In this document: positions 1,853 through 40,032 of the stretch, one piece after another
How positions within the stretch are numbered: position 1 is the stretch's first letter
Layout: each line of letters starts with the position of its first letter
Assembly (NCBI GenBank): GCA_046563655.1
Contig: CM102283.1
Coordinates: forward strand, 9,610,001-9,674,000
From: Yuukianura sp. NJ FZ-2021
Taxonomy: Eukaryota
Length of the DNA: 64,000 nt
Reading direction: 5' to 3'
Program-made: the position numbers and the translations under genes
Notes under the pieces: generated by a model
The model's input: the letters and a program-made list of their open reading frames with translations, nothing else
Told to the model about the DNA's origin: nothing
The model's database searches: none

Positions 1853-3368
1853 CTACTGTTGCCATAGTTCCCGTTGATGTTCTGGCGTATGGACAGATTC
1901 GTAGTCTACATGGACATATGCTCTCTCCACATTCGGTAGCAATTCCAACCGATTTTGTAAAGATTCTCCAAGGTCATGTGACACTTTTAAAGTCGTGTCT
2001 GGATGCAGTACAATGTCCACTTCAACGATGACTTTCTCCCCAGCATGATATGCTTTGCAAGTATCTACTTGCAGTATTCTGTCGTCATGCGTCATGGCAA
2101 TATAAGTCACTCTCTTGATGAACTTCGGATCAGCACATTTCCCAACAATCAGACGACAATGTTTCAGCACATTGCGACTCCAAGAGTACAGAATGAAGAG
2201 ACTGATGGCCAAACCCCCCAGGGGGTCAATGACCCCGCTGACCTTTGACCCCAGCAAGGCCAATATCAGTCCAAAACTGTTCAGGAAAAGGTCATTCCGA
2301 TGATCTTCTGACAAAGCTTGACAGGTTAAGTTATTAACCAGTCGACAGTAGACAAAAAGCACCAATTTTAGCACTATGGCGACACTGACTAAGGCGATGG
2401 ACCAAACCCCAAGGTCGGGGGGTTCGGGGGTCCCTATAAGGGCACTCATGCTGTGTATGATCAGTTGAAGGGACAGTGTTGTCATAAGGGACCCCAGCAC
2501 GACTATTCCTACAGTCTCAAAGCGCCCTTTGCCTGAAGGGTACCTGTAGATTTCAGTCTCCCGGGAGAGGTACTTAGTAGTGATGATGATTCCTGATGAA
2601 ATGAGATCCATCAGTCCATCAGCCATCGTGGCAAAAATTGAGAGCGATCCGGAAATCAGCGCAGCGCTGAGTTCCAGTCCAAAAAGTAAGATGCTGGCAG
2701 TTGCTGTTCCGTAAATGGCTATATTCACTTTTAAATTTTGGCGCTGAGCGTCTTCGACTTTGATTGGAGCAACGGGAGCCAACATGGAGTCTATTAAATC
2801 GTTTTGACTTTGGTAAAATTTGTGCAATTTTTTGCATTCGGTGTTGCTTAGTTCTTGTTCCGATTTTTTGAAATCGACGAGATGCAGAGGATCTGGAAGC
2901 GGGAGGGGAGAGTAAGTTAGCAGTTTGGAGTTTGGCTGAGGTGGGGAGGGGTCAAAGGTCATGTCAATCACACTTTCAGTCTGACTGTTGTTGTTTCGTG
3001 CAAAATCGCTGCCATCGCTGGATAAGCGTCGGTGACCATCGCTGGAACATCGCTGATTTTCAAATTGGTCGTCACAGTCCAACTGATTGTAAACTTTTCC
3101 GCCATCGTTTTTTGTGGAAGCACTGAAAAAATCAAAAATAAGAAAAAAGGAGGATTTTGACTTTTAGGGAATAAAATATTTTTTTTTGTATGTTTTTGCA
3201 CAACTTTTTCTTTGAATTTGTCATTTGAAAAGAGTTTGTGTTGTTTATTTTGTAAATGTGTTTGATCTGCTTTGATGTTAAGTTTGATCTTTTAATTGGG
3301 TTTTACCTTGTTCCACCACCGACAATCAATACATGATGAGGACTCGACGGAGACGGCGTTCTGCTCAT
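1853..3368 (-). CDS. Cation diffusion facilitator, Mn-CDF / plant MTP8-11-like metal transporter; exons 3368-3307 and 3122-1853
   Basis: Motifs FYQSQNDLID, GSLSIFATMADGLMD (TM2 DxxxD), YPSGKGRFET, DHRND (TM5) and C-terminal EVDIVL...SHDLGESLQ...VERAYVHVDYE. The ORF-track start is not an ATG. An upstream exon MSRTPSPSSPHHVLIVGGGT (ATG 3368) splices in frame through a GT-AG intron at 3306-3123. Confidence 0.92.
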
Positions 3369-8769: not shown

Positions 8770-9330
8770 CTTCTGTCCAAAATTGCTCAAAGTAACTCAA
8801 AAACTTCCAAGGTCAAAATTTCAATTTGATCAGGTCAAAGTTTCAGTTTGACCGGATCGGAAAGAGGATCGGAAACGAGTGCGTGCGGACGTTGTTGTTG
8901 CCTTCTGAAAAGCTCTTTGAACAAAAAAGTTTTCAGTTTTCAATCATAACTTGAGTTCCTTCAAATCGCTACTGTTGCCATGGTTTCCAAAAATGCCCAA
9001 GCCTAGTGTTTTTTTTTTCTGAGAAAAAAAAGTAAAATTTTTTTAAATTACGAGTTTCCGTACATAAGATTGCCCTCCTAAGGAAGATTTTTCTCACGCT
9101 TTTATTTCTCTGCGTCATTACCGTTAATTTTTTTTTTTGAAAGTGACCTTGAGTGCCAAAATAAACTTCCAAATTGACATTATGACTTTTATGGTGTTCA
9201 GTTAATATTCTTGAGTCATTCCATTGTTAACGCAAAGTCATTATGTTCCACTTTGCCAGAGTCAGCACATTATCAAATTCCAATTAACAAGTCAGTTTCA
9301 AATTAGGATTTGAACTAAGAACATTTGGAC

Positions 9331-10054
9331 ATGGCTGTACAACTATTTAAAGGAGCGACCACTCTCCTGGCGACATTCACTTTCACTGTTCTCCCAACTG
9401 TTGTCCATGGTAACGACGACTGCTCAAACTTATTTTTCACTTCCGCTTGGCAACAGTGTTTCTTCAACAAGTTCAGAACTAACTGGGTCTTCAACCAGAA
9501 TCCACTCGACGCAGACGCAGACGACGGATTCCCAGACGCAAACGACGGATTCGCAGACACGGACATGTCCTCCGGCTTCAATTTTCCTGCTATGCCGTAA
9601 GGAATTCCGAAATTTCAAAACACAAAATGAAATTTTATGAAATTTATGAAAATGAAATTCTATGAAAAACGGAATTTGTAGGAACATGAACGACATGATG
9701 AACCAAGCAGCCCAAGGTGGTTGGAACGCACAGTCGCAGTCCCAAGTTTCTTCTAGTTCTGGCGGTACAACGTCAAGCACTTTCTCGACCAATGGCCATA
9801 CTTGGGTCGTAGAATCCAATGGTCTGTCCATGTCAACTCACAGTGACGGCAGAGTGGCCACGGTCAAAGTTGACATAGGCCAACCCACTTCAGTGGCCAA
9901 CTCTTTCGGGTCAGACAACAGTTTGCTCGTGACCTTGAAGTACCCCGACGGCATTGACAAGTGGCTCAAGGTCAAACTGGACTCGTCTGGAAACCCTAAA
10001 AATTTGCTAATCGGGCGGGAAAATGGAATTTTGACCATCACAGGTCAAGTCTAA
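9331..10054 (+). CDS. Uncharacterised probably secreted protein, ~212 aa; exons 9331-9596 and 9682-10054
   Basis: Hydrophobic N-terminus ending ..TVVHG|ND; CC|GTAAGG...TGTAG|G intron preserves the frame; beta-rich C-terminus ends ENGILTITGQV. Confidence 0.75.
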
Positions 10055-26664: not shown

Positions 26665-29600
26665 ATGAAGGGCCACTTCAGTCAAAGACTCTACGAGCGA
26701 AACCAACACTACAACGCTACAACTACTGTAAGAAATTTTGAAATTTTCAAATTCGGAGTTTTTTTGAAAACGGAAGTTCCGACAAGTCCGAGTTTTGTTA
26801 GATCCATACTGGCATGCTTAGAACTTTTATGAAAGTGAGTTCCTTGACATGGATATTGATGACTATTCCACCGTTTTTCGGGAATTTTGGAGACACGAGC
26901 CCTTTGTGTCTTGTTTCCAGAGTTCCAGGGACAAAGAACTTTTTTTCTTATTCAAATGCTTATTTCGCACGCAGATTCCACTTTCTCTCATACACGTATG
27001 CTCTGGAATGTGTCCAAGCGGAAGTCAACTTGTGACAATGCGTTACTTCACATTTCAACAACTTGGTTTTCATTTCTGCGTTCCCTAGTTCCCTACAACC
27101 ATACTTTTCTAAAACATGGAATTCATTTTGATTTTGAATTTCAAAATTTTGGTTTTTTGACATTTTGAGTTGACCTATTGACAAAGTTTAAGTTTATGTC
27201 AAGGTCAACGTACAGTAGTTTAGTGCTGCCCAGGTCAAGAACTCCGCTCATTCTTCCTTCTGAGGTGGAAATGGACGTTGACCAACTCCAGGCAAGTTTT
27301 TAAAAAAAATCCCGGGAAATGGTATATTCCCGGGAAATTCAAAATGAAATGGTCTTTTCCCCCCGGGAAATTCTAAACGGTTTCTGGGAGTAACAAACTT
27401 TGTGTAGATGAGTTTCGTTTTATAGAGACAAGGAGGTTGAGGTCGTGATGACACTGGACACCGTGAATGTTGTCCAGACAGTGGAAATTGTACTTTGACA
27501 CGCCACGGTGTCACCATAATTTGTCTATTGTCTTTTCAAATTGGGTATTTTGTTTTTTCCAATCAGGGTATAATCACATGTCGGCATGTAAAAACCAGAT
27601 CCAATTAAACCATCTGCCCAACTTCTCATAGACATTATCATTTTCTGTCTAAACTTTCTTTTTAATAAGAACCGTCTAAAAGTCTAAAAACCTAAAGAAG
27701 CGATGAATTAGTCCAATCTGAGGTTAGTCTGCATTCTGCAACTCCAAGGTTTAGACACACTTCCGTTCCAGGACGTCCAACCTTCATTTTCTGCCAATTT
27801 TCAAAAAATACGTTCAAAAAAGTTGGTTTTTCATAAAAAGTTGAAAGGTTTTAGTAAGTGGAACAGCCTACACCTAGCTGAAGCTGTGCAGCATGGAGGG
27901 AAGAAGGCCAAGGCCAAAAGTTGTGAAAATTTACATTTTGAATTTGAATTTTTAAATGACTAAATCTTGAAAATTTTTGTTTTAGAGTCTTGTAAAATTT
28001 CGAAAAGTTAACTTTTATGCTTTTTTTTTGTTTCAGTCCTTGGCCTTGCCGTCGTCAGGAACGTTGAGCACTACTCCTGGACCGTACTTGGGCGGTGGGA
28101 CAATGACTTCCGGTGGTCCCACGTCAATTTTACGTAATACCCGGCATGTCCCAAGTGCTGGAGCACTGGAATCGGATGTTCGAGCTAGAACTGCTCTTGC
28201 GCATGAACGATTAGAGGAAGACACTGCAACTTACAAAAGACGGCTCGAAAGTTACCGCCAAGCTCAACATCAACAAGCTCTTCTCGTCGCTAGACTTCAA
28301 TCTAAGGTAAATCTTCCAAATTCAAACAAATTTTAGACTACTGCACCCAATTGTGACAAAATTTTGACACTTAGCTGTTTTCTCTAGCTTCTGCAATACA
28401 AACAACGATGTACAAACTTGGAGTCAAAGTTGGGCACCAGTCCAGGACAAGATTTGTACTTTGGCTCCACCTCTGGAGTGGGCGGAGCTTCTGCAGGAGG
28501 CGGAGCTTCTGAATTTGGCGGGAGAACGGCCACTGGCCCACCAGCTGATCTCGAAGATGCTTTGTGGCGACTGGATCAAGAAAAAGTGCGAAATGACAAC
28601 TTGATGCACTTGAACCGCGATTTGCGTGCCGAACTTGAGGAGAGCCGAAAAGTGAACGAATCGCTGTCAAGCGATTTGCAGCGTCTATCGGACGACTGGG
28701 AAAAATTGACGCGCCAAATGAGCGAGCGCGAACAAATGTGGAAGGCTGAAGAGCAGGCGTACTCTGATTACTATCATTTTGAACACACGAAGTTGCTCAG
28801 TCTCTGGAAAAATGTCGTTTCGATCAAACGGGATTTCAGCGAAATGAAATCAGCGACAGGCAGAGACATGGCCACACAACGAAACGCACTTGCGAGGATG
28901 GCAAATCAAATTTCGGCCGGAGTCATTTCAACCATGGTCACCGCACCGTCACCGCAACAGGTAAAATTTACATTCATTTTGGTCACTAAAGTAAAATTTA
29001 CATGTATTTTGGCCAATAAAGTAAAATTTACATTCATTTTTGCCACTAAGGTAAAATTTACATTCATTTCGGCCACTAATGTAAAATTAACGTTGATGTG
29101 CCCACTAAAGTAAAATTTAGATTCATTTTTGGCAACAAAAGTAAAATATTATCAAATTGATCAAATTATGAAAAAAAAAAATTCAGTCGTGTAGGAATTT
29201 TGAAACTGGAGAAACAAATAAGCTTATTAAAGTTTTTAATTTAAAAACTTTTACGACTTTTGATCATGCCATGAACAAATTGTTTCTAATCAACAATTTT
29301 CTTCAAAATAGTTTTTCGTAATTGTGGGAATTTTGAATTTTAGGAAGCACAGCAGTCTGCTTTCATTGGTCAATTGACCCAAGAAGTTCATCTTGCGCAG
29401 CAAAATCAAGAAAATCTGCGCAAACAAGTTAAAGATCGAGATGACAAGATTGCTGGCCTGGAGGGAACGATTATCGACCTGGAAGGAAGAATGCAATTAA
29501 TCGACGCCAGTTTTCAGCGAATCAAAAATCAGGATTTGGCACAACTGAGCAACAGTTTGAAAGAAATTGCCAAAATGTTGATTTCTGACTTTGACCAGCA

Positions 29601-32600
29601 TGGATTGGGAGATGGACATGACATTCACTTGACCTCGTCTCCAGGAATCTTCACTTTTGATGAAACTAACGAAAATCCAACAATTTTTGCAGAATCAGTT
29701 GTCTCTGCCGTCCAAGCCATTTTGAACAAACGCCAACTTCAAATTCATCAACTTCAGGTACTAAAAACATGAATCCTGAAATTTCAAAATTTCAAAATTT
29801 GAAACTTTTTTTGGTCAAGGTCAACTTGTCTTCAGCCAAAGAGCAGGGATTGGTTGGTCGAGGTCACGTGGAGGCTCTGGAGACGGATTTGCACAAAAAC
29901 GAAGAACGCTTGCGCCAAGTTGTTGAAATTAACGAAAAACTGAAGGATGAATTGGCTGGAATCAAAATGGAAAAAGAACAAGCTCAGCGTGGACTAGAAA
30001 ATGCGAAATCCGAAAAAAATATTTTGGAGGCACAAAGAAAAACTTTGGCATCCGAACTGGAGTCGGCGCTGAAAGTGAAGGCAAACATGGCCGCCAGTTT
30101 GGCCAAGGTTGGTTCAAAAATGTTCAAAATTTTGAAAAAGCAAGTTTAAGTTAACTTTTTTTTTTGAAAAGTTGGAGAAATCGATGGAAACGACTCGAGA
30201 TGAGGCTAATGCAGTGACAGCAGAGTTGGACCGATCGCGTGACGAGCTGAGTTTAGTTCTGGGAAAACTTAAATTTGAAAGTGATTTGAGCGGCAAACTT
30301 CGAGACCAACTTCAAGCAGCGACGGAAGACAAAGAACGAAACTCTGCCGAAAACAAAAGTCTCAAGAATCAAGTCAACGAATTTGTAAGTTTTACTTTTT
30401 TCAAATTGCTTTACACATTTTATTATTAGTTCCATACATTGATCCAACAAAACACAATAGAAATTTTCTTTTGTATTTTTTTTTGCTACACGCTTAAGTT
30501 GTCACTGTCATTTTTTTCAAAAACTCCCGCGGCGTCATTTCTTTAGTAGAAGCACGAACAAACACCAGTAGTGCAATATCCTCCGCGTTTCCGCTTTTTA
30601 ACACAACTTTCCCAGCACAAAGATTCGCCATCATCCAAAGTACAAATTGTTTTTGAATTTGGTTCAACTTTTTCAAAATCAAGAGCGTTTTCATCCATTT
30701 CAGTTTGAGCCTCCTCTACAAACAAATTTTAAAAGACAAGTTTTTCAAAAAGTTTTTTAAAAAATTTGGACATTGAACAAAAAAGTCTTGTGTTTACCCT
30801 CTCGAATCTCGTTTTTTAATTCTTCTCCAAAACTTCCCCGGGCAAGCACAGTAAGCACAAACAGAAAAACCAAAATTTTCATTTTTGAAAACGAATTTTT
30901 GAGTTGGTTTACTTCAAAATTCACAATTTTCGCTTTTATCACCAGACTTTTGATGTCAAAAACAGAAGAAATTTAAAATTTCACGTGACTATAAAATTTT
31001 TGGAAATCGTCATTGTTTTTATGCAAGTTTGATGATTTGCCAATAAACTTTTGATTCGTGCAGTTACCATATGGTCGTAAATTTGAAATTTGCATTTGGA
31101 AACCATAATTTTGAAGTTTTTTGGTGTAATTGATTTCCAAATTTTATTTTAGGTAAACAAGTACGAAGATTTGGTGTTTCAATTCGAAAGAAGTGAAGAT
31201 TCACTCAAAAAGTGGAAGCTAGATGCTGAAATTTTGGCTGAAAAGTTGAAATCAGCTTCAGAACGAAACGAAGTGATGGAAAAAGAGAAGAAAAAGTGGC
31301 AGGAAAAAGCCCGTCAATTGGAAGAAACTAAAAAGCAAATCGAAGCAGATTTGACCGACGCACGAAACGATTTGGGCAGTTTGAGACGCGAGACGCTTGA
31401 TGCCGAACGAAACCGAACTGACATGGAGGCCAAGTTGGAAAAACTTGTTGCTCAGGCAGACGGCGCTGAAAACCGGAAAAGCGTTTTGGAAAATCAACTT
31501 GAGACGCAACGGGACGAATATTTGCGTGAAATGAACTTAATGGGAGATCGAATCGACATGCTCACAGAAGAACTTGGACAAAATCGGTAAAAAATAAGCT
31601 TTTTAGACAAATTTTTCAGCTTTTGTGCCAAAATTTAGTTTTTTTTTTCTAAATAGACGTGAATTTGACGAGGCCATGGACAAACTGGAGCGTACAAAGG
31701 CAGATTTGCAAAGTACAGAGAAGATGCACACAGAGGCTGCGCAGATGCTTGAAACTAAAGACTCTACAATTCGAAATCTTGCAAATTCCTTGGAAAAATT
31801 GAAAGATGAAAAATACTCTTTAGAAGAATTGGAACAAACTCTCAAATCAGCTTTGTTAGACAAAGATCGCAAAATTGATTCTCTGGAAAAGCAAATCTCT
31901 GAACTCAAAACACGCATGACGAGTGACCTTGGATCACTCAAGGAAAAACTCTCTCGGTCCGAACTGGAAACCAAAGTGGCTAGAGACAAAGCAGAACAAG
32001 AAAAATCCGCATTAGAAAACAAATTGACAAAAGAAATTGTTTCACTCAAAGCAATTAATAGTTCAAACGAAGAAAAAATGAAGAGTGACTTTGAAGCTAA
32101 AATCAAAGCACTAAAAAGTGAAGCTGAAGGAGAAAAGAAAACGGAAAGTGTAAAATTCAACACCGAAATTAATTCACTCAAGCAACAAATTGAGAATTTG
32201 CGGGTTCAGTACGACGAGGCTTTGCTTAGAGCAGAAAACGACAAACAGCAAGGTCTGCTTTTGGCACAACAAGATCAACAAGGATTGGCAGACAAAATTC
32301 GACTGCTGGAAAGAGAATTAGACGACGCTAAAAACGACCGCGGTAAAATTCAAAAATTTAAAAGTTTTCAAAAACTTTTTGCTAAAAGGGCTCAACTTTT
32401 TGCTAAAAGTGTTCAACTTTTTAATGTTTAATGCATTTTTTAGAGCGGCTGAAACGGGAATGTGAGTCGAAATGTTCACATGAGCGGTCTAATGCAGCAA
32501 CACTCCGTTCTGAAGTCATAAAATTGAAAAACGAACTTGAAACCACCAAACAAGACAACATGGACTCCCTAAAACAAATTGAACTGCGTCTTCAAGATAT

Positions 32601-35398
32601 CGAACGCGAAAGAGAAGAAGCTTTAATGCAAGTGGAAGACCTTCGAACTAAATTGCGCTCCACAGAAGAGCGGGAAAGTGAGGTCAAACGCGAATTGAAC
32701 GAAATTCATCGTCGTTTACGCGACACAGAGGCGTCAGGCGATCATTGCAAAAAAGAACTAACCGAAACACGCCGATCTCTGACTGAACTGACGGTGGAAA
32801 AAGAGAAAACCAACAGCATTTTGGATCAACTCAAGGAAGAATTAAATCGGCGTGAGCAGGATATCGTGACGCAAAAACGCGAATTGACGAGAGTTCAAAA
32901 TCAAGTTAAAAATTTGGAACGTTTGAAGCAAGAATTAGAGTCCGAGGTGACTTCGATGATTTTGAAAGTTGATGCAGCTTCGAAAGAAAAAGCTGAGCTG
33001 GCTAAACAGTATGAAGACTTGGGAGATCAGCTGAATCAGACCAAGTCTCAATCGGCTCAAGCCGAATCCGAAGCCGCTGAGTTGAAAATGAAGCTGGAAG
33101 CGGAGAGTGAGCGTCGGGATGAAGCTGAAGCACAGTGGCGCAATTCTAAGAAAATGTTGGACGACTGTGAACTGCAATTGTCTCAGACTAAACAAGAGGA
33201 AGAACGACTTGCGCAGAAGTTGTGCGAAACTGAAGAGCGTTATGCTTTAAAAGAGGGACACTTTTTGCAATTGGCTGATGAATATAAACAGCGTGAGAAA
33301 AAATTGTTAGATGAAAAACACAATTTGAATGTCGCTCTGATGTCGCTTCAGCAGCAAATGGAACAACAAATGGTAAAATTCTTCAAAAACGAAAATTTCA
33401 AAAATTTTAAAAATTTCAAATTTTTCAATTTTTAGGCTAAAGTCGCATCGGCTGAACATCGGCTCAAACTTCTCACTGATGAGAAGATCGGATTGGAGCG
33501 ACAGAAGAAAGAAAGTGAAACTAAGCTCAGCCATATTCAGTCCGGCTTCAAACGGCTCGGAATCGGCTCGGGATCACTCGAGAATCCCGAATCGGCTCGG
33601 CGTGCAATGACTTCCCTGCAGACCCAAATGGCTTCACTGCAACAAGATCGTGACACAATTGCTTCTCAGTTGAGTTCAACCCGAGATGCTTTGGCGACAT
33701 TGGAACAAACAAAATCTCAGATTGAAGATCAATTTACGCAGATGAATCGGTCGTACCAATCGGCTCGTGGAGAAAACAAAGCAAAAGATGTCGTCATTTT
33801 CAATTTAGAAAAAGAAGTTGGGCTGAAAAACGCTGAACTTTTGCGCATGGCTGACAAAGTGCGGGAAATGGAAGAAACCGTCAAGACATGTCAAGATACA
33901 ATTCGGTCAGTGCGGACCGAAAAGGACCAACAAAAAGAGGAACTCGAAAAAGCAAAACACAAAATCGAAGAATCGAGGGTTTCTGGAGATTCGAAGTTAG
34001 CAAAAGCCGAAGTTCAAATTCGAGCTCTGGAGGGAGATTTGAATCGCTTGAGTTTGGTTTTACAACAAAAAGATTCCAGCATCCAAGCACTGGAGTCAAA
34101 ATGTGCTGGAATGCAGCGTCAGGTGACTGACCTGGAAGAGCGCTGTGGATCTTTGACTTTGACTGTGGAACAATTGAGTCAATCGCTGGACAAAACTGGA
34201 CAAGCAGAACAAGATTGGAAGGAAAAGTACAACAATGCGAGTCGTACTGCCAGTGAAAATGCTGTTCAAAATAGTTCGTTGAACGAAAAACTTCGGAGTC
34301 TGCAAAGAGACAAAGCGATGCTGGAGCAAGATCGAAACACTTTGGCAGAAAAATTTGAATCTTCGGCAGCCGCCGTTCAAGATTTGAAGCGTCAAATTTT
34401 ACTTTTGTCTGAAAAAAATCAAAAGTTGCGATACCAATCGGAAGAGATGACACGGAATGCAATTGACAAACAACTCAAAATGGTGGTAGGTTTCCAAAAT
34501 TCAAAATTTGGGGAAAAAAAATGATTTTTTTCGTTTTTTTCAACTTTTCAGTTTTCTGACTCTGGAAAAGAAGATTTAAGACAACTGACGGCTGACAAAT
34601 TGGAACTCCAGCGTAAAGTTGAATCGCTGCAAGATCGGATTCGGGATGCCGAACGTGAGAATCGTGAGCTGGAACGCTTGAAGGAGTCCATGTCAGCGAA
34701 AACGCTGTTGTCAAGCAGTCGCAGTCCACAACTCCATGACAACGCAATGAAAGTGCTGGAAGAAGAGAACTCTGACCTGCGCAGAAAAATTATCAAAATG
34801 GAGGCTGAAATTCGTGACCTGGAACGTCGTCACTCCAAGCACATTTCTGAAGTTACTTTGCAAGTGAAGCAGGTATACCTCAAAAATCTGAAATCATTTA
34901 AAAAATCTGACATTTTTCAAAATTTTTGAATTTGTAGGAACGTGATTTTGAAATGGAGAGAGCCCGGACAGCTAAAGTCCAAGCAGAGCGTCTTCTGGAG
35001 GCTCGTGAAGGAAACTACAGACAACAAATTCAGCGTCTGGAAGTTCAAGTGACAAATTTAAAAGAGCAACTTGGAGAGGAGATTCGGCGTCGTCAAACTT
35101 TTTTGACGCGCAGCTTTCGCACGGCCCAAGACGTTCGTCAACTTCGTCAGGCGGTAAAAGACTGAAATTTAAAAAAATAGTTGTAATTTCGAAATTTTGA
35201 AGTTGATTTTTTGAAAAGCTGAACGACTCTCTTCGGAATGTCGCTACGGATCCGAATACACTGGAACAAGAAACGCGTCGACTGGAATCTGTCATGGAAT
35301 TCCACAAAAGCGGATCTCAGTCGTCTCTTTTGAGTCCAATGAGAGATAGAATGTCGCCTGGAATGGGACTCAAGAGTGCCACGCCCACTCCCAAGTAA
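26665..35398 (+). CDS. CROCC: Rootletin (ciliary rootlet coiled-coil protein), many exons; first exon 26665-26727 is tentative
   Basis: YKRRLESYRQAQHQQALLVARLQSKVLQYKQRC, DLEDALWRLDQEKVR, YYHFEHTKLLSLW..V..KRDFSEMKSATGRDM, ALLRAENDKQQ and C-terminal QAERLLEARE.NYRQQIQRLEVQV..LKEQL.EEIRRRQ; heptad-rich ORFs over ~7 kb. Confidence 0.9.
28961..29148. repeat. 30-bp minisatellite (~6 copies) starting at a rootletin splice donor
   Basis: GTAAAATTTACATTCATTTTGGCCACTAA(A/G)-like units at 28961, 28991, 29021, 29051, 29081 and ~29110. Confidence 0.9.
30543..30882 (-). CDS. Arthropod-type CS-alpha-beta defensin precursor, 85 aa; exons 30882-30798 and 30715-30543; nested antisense in rootletin intron ~30385-31152
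   Basis: Signal peptide MKILVFLFVLTVLARGSFG, acidic propeptide, mature region ICTLDDGESLCWESCVKKRKRGGYCTTGVCSCFY with C-x8-C-x3-C-x9-C-x4-C-x-C spacing and GGYC gamma-core; phase-1 GT-AG intron. Confidence 0.88.
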
Positions 35399-35815
35399 AA
35401 ACGAAAAATCTCAAAATCAAAATCAAAATTTGTCGAAATTTTGGAAAAAATTTCCACCTCATGTCAATTTGAAGTTGTCTAGCACTGCCATCAACACAAG
35501 CCTAAAATAAAATTAAGTAGATCTAAAAGTCAATTTCAAAATTAAGCAATTGTTTAAAATTCGGTGCTTTTTCACAAAGTGCTAGAAATGTTAGTTAATT
35601 AAAAATTAATTAATGTGAATGTAATTAGTATTTAACTTGAATGTAATTTAGTAATTAATGTGAATGTTAATTAGTAATTAATGTTCCTACCCAAACTTGT
35701 AGACTCTTGCCTAAAGATCTCACCAAGTTTTCAGTGCTTTTGTATTGAAATTTAGCGCCTCAGGCTTCCTTTTTTAACATTTGAAAGAATTGACAGAAAA
35801 AGACGTGCCCTGATG

Positions 35816-35898
35816 GCATCATCGCATCATCAACATCATCATGATCATCGCATCATCATGATCATCAGCATCATCATGATCATCAGCATCATCATCAT
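35816..35898. repeat. Imperfect (CAT)n / CATCATGATCATCAG microsatellite between rootletin and TBCB
   Basis: Run of CAT/CAG triplets read directly from the sequence. Confidence 0.85.
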
Positions 35899-36184
35899 GG
35901 AAAACGAAATGGAAAGGCAGAACTTGGTTTGGTGAAAACGTAACAAACGTTAAATGACAGATTCCGTCCAGAAACCGGTTAAAAGTTGTGTTCTTATTCA
36001 CAGTTAAAGCTATTTTAAGTTAAAACTTAAGTTAAACTAATAAGTTACTTTAAGTTAAAACTTAAGTTTTAACAGATTGATTTGATTCAAGGCCCTTGCT
36101 ACAATGACTGCCATTAAACAAAAGTTGTGAAATGTGAGAGATTATCGCAGATTATTGACGTTAATTTTAAGAATTTAGCTGGTT

Positions 36185-37621: not shown

Positions 37622-38053
37622 AAATTCTTTTTTGCAATTTCTTTTCCATGTTTCTGAACGTTTTGCAGCTTAATTGGTATTTTTATGCATAAAACACGCT
37701 TCAACTGTACAATTAATAATATTTTACTTGTTAAACTCTAATTTATCACATAAAAATGACGCTCTTGTTCGAATATTACGCCATTTAATTTTTTCGTTCT
37801 AAGAATCTTAGAAACAGAGAATTATGTTTCAAACTTATTTTAAGCCCCCCTTCCCCCCAACACTCTATCGGACGGATAATTAAAAATTCATTGAAAACAG
37901 TTTACGTTGGATGTGGTTGAAAATTTGGACCACTGGATTTAATTAAACTTAATTCCCCCTACCTCAAATTGCTCTTAATTAATTTTTTTTAAGTTGCTTC
38001 TTCCATAAAATCAATTGGTCAACTGGGTTGCTTTTTAATTTGAAAGTTGCATC

Positions 38054-40032
38054 ATGGGAAGCACAACTCTAATTTCGGCCATCTTGGCCTTTGTTCTTCT
38101 AGCATCTGCGCATGGGTTGAAAACTAGTCGGACCAGTTCGAGCTCAACTACGACCACTTACGAGTCAACTAGCTCCTACCATCGACCAGCATCCACTTCG
38201 TCTTACTCGAGTCACAGCAGTTACGCAACTCCCGGCGGGGCAACTTCCTACCAACAAAACTACTACGCTCCCACATATGCAGCACAAACAAGTCCAGGAG
38301 GGTCGAGCTACAGCAGTCACAGCAGTTGGAGCAGCAACTCTGGCGGTACTGGAGGTACCTCTGCTGGATTTATGGTACCGTCGACAGCATCTACGACATA
38401 CTCACATAAAACTTCAACAAGTGGTACCTCTACTCCTGGATTTGTACTTCCATCGGCATCGACCTACTCTCAGAAAACTTCATCCAGCGGAGGTACCGGG
38501 ATACCTCCAGGCTTCATTGTTCCTGGATCAGGGGTATTCTCTGAAAAAAGTTCAACGTTTACCACGCATGATAGCGATGACTCCAGTACCTCCATGGCAG
38601 GGTACCACCAACCAGCAGCATACACTCAAAGGCCTTCATTGAAAGGTGGCAACAGCGGATCGTCATCCACCTATTCTCAAACCACTTCATCAAAAGGTGG
38701 CAACGCTGGAAGATTTGTGGTACCTTCATCATCATCATCCACCTATTCTCAAACAACTTCATCAAAAGGTGGCAACACTGCTGTATTTGCGGTACCTTCA
38801 TCATCGGCATCCACCTATTCTCAAACAACTTCATCAAAAGGTGGCAACACTGGATTTGTGGTACCTTCATCGTCATCCACATATTCTCAAAGTCAAACAA
38901 CTTCTTCAAAAGGTGGCAACACCGCTGCATATGTCTATCCACCCCCGATAACCAGCAGCGGTACCAAAGGCGTATCTACAACAACCACTTCCACTTCTTC
39001 CGGAATTGACTCAGGCCTTCTAGCTCCATACCCCGCCTATAACGATTACGGCGGGTCAAAAGGCAGTAGTGGATTTGTGGTACCTTCTTGGGCTCCACCG
39101 TTGCCATCTAGCGGAAAATACACCTCAACCACCACAACCACAACAAGTACCGACGGCAGTACCGCGTTGCCACCTGGATTCATAGCTGGTGGGTCATCGA
39201 TCTACTCAAAAGGTGGATCATCCAGTACCTACGACACTGACTCCAGCAGTACCTCCGTCGCTGGACTTCGGGTACCTTCTGGTTCGGTTTCCCATTCGTC
39301 AACGACTTCATCTTCTTCGTCGAGAGGTGGCTCTGGCGGATTTGTGGTACCAATGGCGCCACATACGACATCTACCGGAAAATACTCCACTTCGACAACA
39401 ACTACGACAAATGGAGAAGGCGGGGCTTACTACTCTTATCCTTCTGGACCTAATGGCTACATGTATACCACCAACTACGAAATGTCACCACAAAATGTCA
39501 TGCACAACGTCCAGCAAAGTCAGACGAATGTCAACCACTCTCCGGTTTTTCTACCGGCTTCCGGAACGAGTTACTCTTCTAGCGGTACCAGAAACTACTA
39601 CCACACGCAGTACATCTACAGAGACCAAGCGGTAAATCGGAACAGAGCGGACCAATCAGCTGAAGAGAAAGGCAAATTTTTAAAAACTAGGAAAAAATTT
39701 TTTAGAAAAGTTTTAATTTTTGAAATTTTGTAGCAATGATTGCTCGGATGACGGCGGCTGGAGAAGCTGGATCGAAACCGATTGTGCTTTACGAACACAC
39801 AGACCATAGTGGGCGTGGCCTAATTTTGTTGGTGGGCAAAGGTCAATGTCTCGACTTGCCCCCGGACTTCAACGACATGGTTTCTTCAGTTAACACTTTT
39901 GGCGCCTGTTTTTCACTGTGTGAACATTCGGATTGTACCGGAAGTTGCAAAAAAATTACATCCGGCAATGGACAACACACTTACGTCGGGGATTTGTACA
40001 ACGACGAAATCACTTCTGTCAAACTTTGCTAA
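38054..40032 (+). CDS. Secreted Ser/Thr/Gly-rich repetitive protein with C-terminal beta-gamma-crystallin-like domain; exons 38054-39671 and 39734-40032
   Basis: Signal peptide MGSTTLISAILAFVLLASAHG; repeats STYSQTTSSKGGN..FVVPSSS; last exon IVLYEHTDHSG...DFNDMVSSV...LCEHSDCTG...YNDEITSVKL forms two Greek-key motifs. Joining in frame requires a GC donor at 39672. Confidence 0.78.

Follow-up and report, generated by a model that had tools for sequence, protein, structure and literature searches.

In a 64,000-nucleotide window of the genome of Yuukianura sp. NJ FZ-2021 (assembly GCA_046563655.1, contig CM102283.1, positions 9,610,001 to 9,674,000 of the forward strand), we analysed a small two-exon gene that lies on the minus strand inside an intron of a plus-strand rootletin gene and is predicted to encode a defensin of the cysteine-stabilised alpha-beta (CS-alpha-beta) fold. 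Coordinates are those of the window and are collected in Table 1. The host gene was identified by the Pfam family Rootletin (E 3.5e-43) and, in a search that returned five proteins, by an identity of 58% over 1893 columns to the protein of Folsomia candida; the identities to those of the wasp Leptopilina, the beetle Cylas, and the spider Stegodyphus were 31%, 30%, and 22%, respectively, so that the source is in all probability a springtail. The host exon chain with the acceptor at 29819 forms an open frame. The first-pass annotation of this DNA had placed the small gene antisense in a rootletin intron, and this placement was confirmed: from its ATG to its polyadenylation signal, the gene lies wholly within a GT..AG intron on the opposite strand, the host frame is intact, and the exons flanking the intron match residues 547-615 and 618-761 of Folsomia rootletin. 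This intron is the largest of the 11 mapped, the others being 62-383 nucleotides long (nine of 62-101 nucleotides and one of 383 nucleotides).

The same annotation had joined two short minus-strand pieces into an 85-residue precursor with six cysteines. The joining held, with exact coordinates and an open frame across a predicted GT-AG junction, at which the split codon reads Glu. The ATG stands in the context CAAAAATG. Because read-through of exon 1 alone meets a stop after 41 amino acids, and the exon-2 frame alone is closed by a stop 5 codons upstream and lacks a Met, neither exon is a gene by itself. Scored with a splice-site matrix built from just 11 host introns, the junction 30798/30715 ranked first among the 12 frame-compatible donor/acceptor pairs (score 10.4), by a narrow margin over the pair of donor 30771 and acceptor 30714 (score 10.0), which would give a 93-residue product; the mature domain is identical with either junction. 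On the donor side, 128 of the 3546 minus-strand GT dinucleotides score equally high, as do 287 of the 3665 AG dinucleotides on the acceptor side. Both exons have a G+C content of 0.39; that of the defensin intron is 0.22, like that of the host introns, and values across the intron and flank are 0.22-0.29. A phase-1 intron close to the signal is described as common in secreted-peptide genes (PMC5308243). The defensin gene is well-formed and easily overlooked by annotation.

Table 1. Features of the rootletin host gene and of the nested defensin gene, in window coordinates
Feature	Position	Strand	Remarks
Rootletin host gene	28037-35401	+	12 mapped exons, open over 1857 codons; 5' end outside the mapped part
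Host intron with the defensin gene	30385-31152	+	768 nucleotides, GT..AG, phase 0; follows residue 586 of the mapped chain
Defensin exon 1	30882-30798	-	85 nucleotides (28 codons + 1 base), phase 1 at its end; start codon, signal peptide, and first 9 propeptide residues
Signal peptide	30882-30826	-	About residues 1-19; putative cleavage, placed by eye with the -3/-1 rule, after Gly19 (or Gly16)
Defensin intron	30797-30716	-	82 nucleotides, GT-AG, phase 1, inside the propeptide; predicted junction
Defensin exon 2	30715-30543	-	173 nucleotides (2 bases + 56 codons), TAA
Exon 2, rest of the acidic propeptide	30651-30715	-	Single Lys at its end; pro/mature boundary inferred
Exon 2, predicted mature CS-alpha-beta defensin and stop codon	30543-30650	-	35 amino acids
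AATAAA, likely polyadenylation signal	30419-30424	-	119 nucleotides beyond the stop, within the host intron; putative

The exon 1 product begins with a basic residue followed by a core of hydrophobic residues (hydropathy of 3.38 across 11 positions), and from this signal-like N-terminus, the precursor would be secreted. It is followed by an acidic propeptide of about 31 residues (net charge of -8) and by the predicted mature peptide, which has a net charge of +1 (or +2) and six cysteines spaced 8/3/9/4/1, with G-G-Y before Cys4. A signal, an acidic propeptide, and a mature peptide represent the standard defensin layout (PMC5506212, PMC4996505, PMC2853521), and the spacing fits the insect defensin consensus C-X5-16-C-X3-C-X9-11-C-X4-7-C-X-C (PMC4996505). 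In a six-frame scan of the window, the only CS-alpha-beta-like motif was that of defensin exon 2. Furthermore, a strict signal-peptide filter passed just two starts on both strands of the window, one of which is the ATG at 30882, 238 nucleotides upstream of Cys1.

Comparison with Pfam profiles, which had been put forward as a check on the defensin assignment, gave Defensin_2 (PF01097) as the sole family passing (23.9 and 25.4 bits against a curated cut-off of 20.4), and no scorpion-toxin family was listed at E up to 1 or, in a second scan, at E up to 0.01. In a PDB sequence search, the top seven matches were either insect defensins or engineered forms of the one from Anopheles (best E 4e-4), the eighth was the fly venom peptide Dg3b (6px8; E 0.02-0.07), and scorpion toxins appeared at E 0.6 or worse. 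In the ESM Atlas, where scores below 0.9 are leads only, defensin clusters ranked first for the 56-residue query (0.79-0.84). A HMMER search of 1.84 billion representatives returned five matches at E < 0.001, the best of which (P0003, E 8e-7) strings together five defensin precursors that likewise have the 8/3/9/4/1 spacing. The peptide is, by every sequence test applied, a member of the arthropod CS-alpha-beta defensins.

Several other candidates were rejected. The remaining four HMMER matches (P0004-P0007; 1800-4366 residues) aligned mainly on the acidic propeptide, and two of the four, profile-scanned, proved to be bacterial proteins with immunoglobulin repeats. A metagenome scan gave 272 pattern matches, of which a single one passed (L001); it spans 13 residues, in a frame that lacks CxxxC, on a prokaryote-like contig, and was attributed to chance. 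In a prokaryote genome scan, two of 185 passed (L002 and L003), each of them a stretch resembling DGESLCWE within a long methanogen protein that is otherwise unrelated. The exact exon-2 peptide was absent from a collection of 15 billion sequences, as expected for a single exon of a spliced gene, and neither tblastn nor blastn found a defensin paralogue in the window. As for P0003, it is a 443-residue gene model labelled as from the jellyfish Sanderia malayensis and consists of five near-identical complete precursors, each with a signal, a propeptide, an RRKR site, and an insect-like mature peptide; gene prediction has probably fused a tandem array into this one model. The occurrence of an insect-like defensin in a cnidarian data set represents either contamination or a broader range for the type.

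The CS-alpha-beta fold expected from the cysteine spacing was borne out by a single-sequence AlphaFold2 model of the last 38 residues, which has a helix (residues 11-21) and a hairpin of two strands (26-30 and 33-37) at a predicted local distance difference test (pLDDT) score of 82. The disulfides, inferred from the spacing, would be C1-C4, C2-C5, and C3-C6. The propeptide part of a 56-residue model has no secondary structure. The top Foldseek match was a defensin, with a template modelling score of 0.71, and in a wide fold search, drosomycin ranked second (Z 5.1, root mean square deviation of 1.1 over 35 residues). Acidic residues lie at the helix start and basic ones at the helix end in the 38-residue model. 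This arrangement is the usual one for stabilisation of the helix dipole.

The first-pass annotation had regarded two features as unusual, namely the lack of a dibasic or furin site before the mature region and the polarised charge of the mature peptide. The lack of the site was confirmed, as no dibasic pair precedes Cys1 and no RxxR occurs in exon 2, but it is not unusual: a dibasic site ending the propeptide is given as the rule in insect defensins (PMC5506212; PMC11116330), whereas none of the three Sminthurus viridis defensins has one, and the acidic spacer of defensin 1 of that springtail ends in EPSPK (PMC10051947 supplement), close to the EPNSK that ends the propeptide here. For locust defensins, the published account names a dibasic site for LmDEF5 only (PMC4996505). 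KKRKR was rejected as a maturation site; it is not RxxR, it lies inside the disulfide-bonded core, and it is common to the Tribolium defensin. The charge polarity is likewise real but has precedents. The basic stretch is the usual defensin helix-end patch; Tribolium defensin 1 carries an identical KRKRGGYC (PMC5506212), and the Anopheles defensin aligns Arg-rich residues there. Acidic n-loops are reported for the antibacterial defensins of Spodoptera littoralis and Plutella xylostella (10/3/9/4/1, Cys-Ser-Cys ends, net charges of -5 and -1; PMC5506212), which are likened here by features and not by sequence relationship; these moth peptides are net negative and lack a basic patch, unlike the present one. 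Heliomicin and drosomycin, both antifungal, resemble it in their net charge of +1 and in having acidic residues close to where the helix begins and basic residues where it ends (PMC5506212); they differ in being 44 residues long with an extra N-terminal segment, drosomycin has eight cysteines, and neither was among the PDB sequence matches. Because each of these supposedly unusual features has a defensin precedent, we regard the features as ordinary.

With respect to known systems, the best sequence matches are classical insect defensins (Anopheles 2ny8, sapecin, phormicin, Tribolium defensin 1, and Chironomus defensin A), which share with the present peptide the signal, acidic propeptide, and mature peptide, the basic helix end with RGGYC, and a short hairpin, in which Cys4 and Cys5 are separated by 4 residues. 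The spacing of Chironomus defensin A is 8/3/9/5/1, and its net charge is +2 (PMC5506212). The present peptide differs from this group in having no dibasic site, no Asp right after Cys1, an acidic n-loop of 8 residues, which is shorter than in most of those listed, and a net charge of +1 without a basic tail after Cys6. As its propeptide lacks a dibasic or RXKR site, it falls outside the classical insect-type defensins in the narrow sense. Navidefensin3, described as a non-classical insect defensin, combines a classical precursor with a short n-loop (PMC2853521). In a survey of five springtail species, defensins were reported in one, Sminthurus viridis (defensins 1-3), all of them chelicerate-like, and loss was inferred elsewhere (PMC10051947). 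Those peptides are also springtail CS-alpha-beta peptides without a dibasic site, and defensin 1 has an acidic spacer with a single Lys at its end; they have a spacing of 5-6/3/9-10/7/1, Phe/Leu-Gly before Cys1, and lengths of 63-72 residues, and they group with chelicerate defensins (PMC10051947). Compared by eye, the precursor of 85 residues with its 8/3/9/4/1 spacing is insect-like, and because its spacings of 8 and 4 stand against 5-6 and 7, it is not a Sminthurus-type (chelicerate-like) springtail defensin. The insect-like affinity suggested by the spacing and the best matches is a lead. A literature search, with most subscription journals outside its reach, found no report of a springtail defensin nested in rootletin.

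Thus read, the gene is an ordinary, divergent addition to a well-known antimicrobial family, and we consider it probable, from its sequence, that it is an intact gene of innate immunity in a springtail-like hexapod, with transcription of its own, and that it encodes a secreted antimicrobial defensin. The gene would be transcribed against its host, spliced, and polyadenylated within the host intron. The precursor would be secreted with its acidic propeptide masking the basic patch until the propeptide is cleaved off, either at the single Lys that precedes the domain or close to it. Three disulfides would fix the helix on the beta-hairpin. The basic helix end may bind anionic microbial surfaces, and the peptide may kill via membrane damage or by engaging a lipid of the membrane or cell wall, for instance lipid II or a sphingolipid; both modes are described for the defensin family (PMC5506212; PMC2853521). 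Gram-positive bacteria are the foremost candidate target, a choice that we make tentatively because the best sequence matches are classical insect defensins. Fungi, considered because the low net charge resembles that of heliomicin and drosomycin, come next as a possible but rather unlikely target.

A number of results weigh against the antimicrobial defensin. Upstream of the ATG, neither a TATA box nor a sense-strand kappaB-like site was found within the host intron. The net charge of +1 or +2 is low compared with those of antibacterial insect defensins. The 56-residue model was poorer than the shorter one, with a pLDDT of 68, a shorter helix, and an unclear last strand. No Foldseek match was obtained at E 0.001, with a scorpion toxin at rank 2, and the best Z in VIA-align was 5.3. 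Defensins, drosomycin, plant defensins, and scorpion toxins were returned mixed together by the fold searches, which therefore support the fold but do not discriminate function. For the 35-residue mature query, scorpion short-toxin clusters ranked first in the ESM Atlas (0.86-0.88). Finally, no close homologue was found in word-based searches with exon 2 and a two-row alignment or in the metagenome and prokaryote genome scans.

Among the other readings, the best placed, though unlikely, is a secreted peptide of the defensin fold that is not microbicidal and serves as a reproductive or cuticular secretion, in protease inhibition, in toxin neutralisation, or in signalling. The low net charge and the strong divergence would suit such a role, the fold is also used by protease inhibitors and in other roles (PMC2853521), and a Drosophila defensin duplicate is reported to have become a toxin-neutralising peptide (PMC11116330); nested Drosophila genes are, moreover, described as narrowly expressed and often testis-biased (PMC3814207). 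However, the precursor retains its RGGYC core and acidic propeptide along with the complete layout of a defensin, and defensins with net charges of 0 to +2, or even negative, are reported to be antimicrobial (PMC5506212).

It is quite unlikely that the peptide is instead a defence peptide in which the same scaffold serves chiefly as a blocker of channels for K+ (or for other ions) in predators, parasites, or fungi, a possibility to which the first-pass annotation had alluded by linking the fold to scorpion K+-channel toxins. The short n-loop of 8 residues and the dense basic patch are consistent with it, as are the scorpion toxins interleaved with defensins in both fold searches and the toxin clusters heading the Atlas ranking for the mature part; these Atlas scores are, however, leads, and the toxin clusters consist of records of 36-38 residues, similar in length to the query. 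Furthermore, springtails are not known to possess a venom apparatus. The scorpion alpha-KTx toxins and Dg3b, a defensin-derived fly venom peptide, share the fold, but the alpha-KTx signature Lys-Cys4-X-Asn (PMC8252768) is absent here, where the sequence is Tyr-Cys-Thr-Thr, the Pfam comparison gave no toxin match, and the scorpion toxins fell far behind the insect defensins in the PDB search (E 0.6 or worse against 4e-4). The link to the toxins was thus not upheld; the shared fold does not discriminate. The Lys-aromatic dyad is reported not to be strictly needed in all toxins (PMC8252768), and plectasin blocks Kv1.3 weakly, with a half-maximal inhibitory concentration of 2.8 uM (PMC4303811), so that a weak side activity is possible. 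That the peptide belongs to a missed springtail lineage of short-loop insect-like defensins acting mainly on ion channels via the basic patch, and not via the scorpion signature, is an improbable extension of this idea.

We also regard it as very unlikely that the gene is a silent or decaying duplicate, inserted recently with its frame kept and left unexpressed. Only about 270 nucleotides lie between the ATG and the end of the host intron, with the TATA box missing as noted above, and no orthologue was found; however, all six cysteines and the start context are intact, as are the two splice sites and the polyadenylation signal, the reading frame continues unbroken over the intron, the G+C content of the exons exceeds that of the intron and flank, and the window contains no near-identical parent copy. 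A chance arrangement within AT-rich intron sequence has a practically negligible probability: although the loose cysteine motif appeared in 2 of 100 dinucleotide shuffles of the window, so that a whole genome would contain a few by accident, the strict motif appeared in 0 of 100, the domain exceeds its Pfam cut-off, a rare signal-like start connects in frame to the cysteine domain via good splice sites, and the host intron is larger by roughly the size of the defensin gene.

In Drosophila, nearly 10% of genes are reported to occur in nested structures, 71% of the nested genes are antisense, and inserted duplicates are given as their usual origin (PMC3814207). The nesting described here most likely represents a gene copy inserted into a short intron, without a functional tie to rootletin. 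The length of the host intron, at 768 nucleotides against mostly 62-101 nucleotides elsewhere, fits an originally short intron that has taken up a small gene. Neither terminal repeats nor a target-site duplication was conspicuous in the surroundings of the gene; the 17 direct and 45 inverted repeats listed are short and AT-rich, and Rfam gave no match in 28000-36000. The second mapped rootletin intron, of 383 nucleotides, starts with 6.2 copies of a 30-nucleotide repeat (28961-29147, plus strand), which takes up about half of the intron; the repeat unit starts at the splice donor, so that several of the copies carry a donor-like GTAAAA. Just beyond the rootletin stop (35817-35898) lies a run of about 28 CAT trinucleotide units.

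A Pfam scan of window positions 4948-41515 recognised no further immune gene in the vicinity of the defensin gene. The neighbours with Pfam matches are a polyprenyl synthase (4948, plus strand), a synaptobrevin-family SNARE (6296, minus), a Bmt2-like methyltransferase (17217, plus), an OGG1 glycosylase (18537, plus), a CAP-Gly protein (36188, minus), and a glycine cleavage T protein (40146, minus). An uninterrupted frame of 436 codons for a cation-efflux (CDF) transporter is present at 1853-3163 on the minus strand; the long genes of this region contain many short introns. At 9314-10054 on the plus strand, there is a small gene that is probably spliced and combines a hydrophobic start with a stretch rich in Ser and Gly; its scanned frame (9656-10051) gave no Pfam match. 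A long frame rich in Ser, Thr, and Gly (38039-40032, plus strand), which contains internal repeats and has a signal-like start, had no Pfam match either, and the frame after it matched beta/gamma-crystallin weakly (E 4.5e-4, below the cut-off), so that the two possibly form one secreted protein. From 42000 to 64000, no frame exceeds about 120 codons, a region that is either gene-poor or occupied by the long introns of one gene.

The defensin described here does not indicate a new mechanism. If it acted on ion channels, it would represent a natural non-venom case of the transition from defensin to channel blocker, as well as a chemical defence in an animal without a known venom. As an antimicrobial candidate from a soil animal, it is small and easily synthesised. 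More broadly, the concealment of a divergent insect-like defensin in an intron suggests that, in springtails, some of the absences may be missed genes; that springtails possess an insect-like defensin lineage, with the reported losses being partly missed genes, is an idea that we hold with some reserve, as it may well not apply, although it is likelier than the ion-channel reading. The defensin also bears on the question of when insect-type defensins arose.

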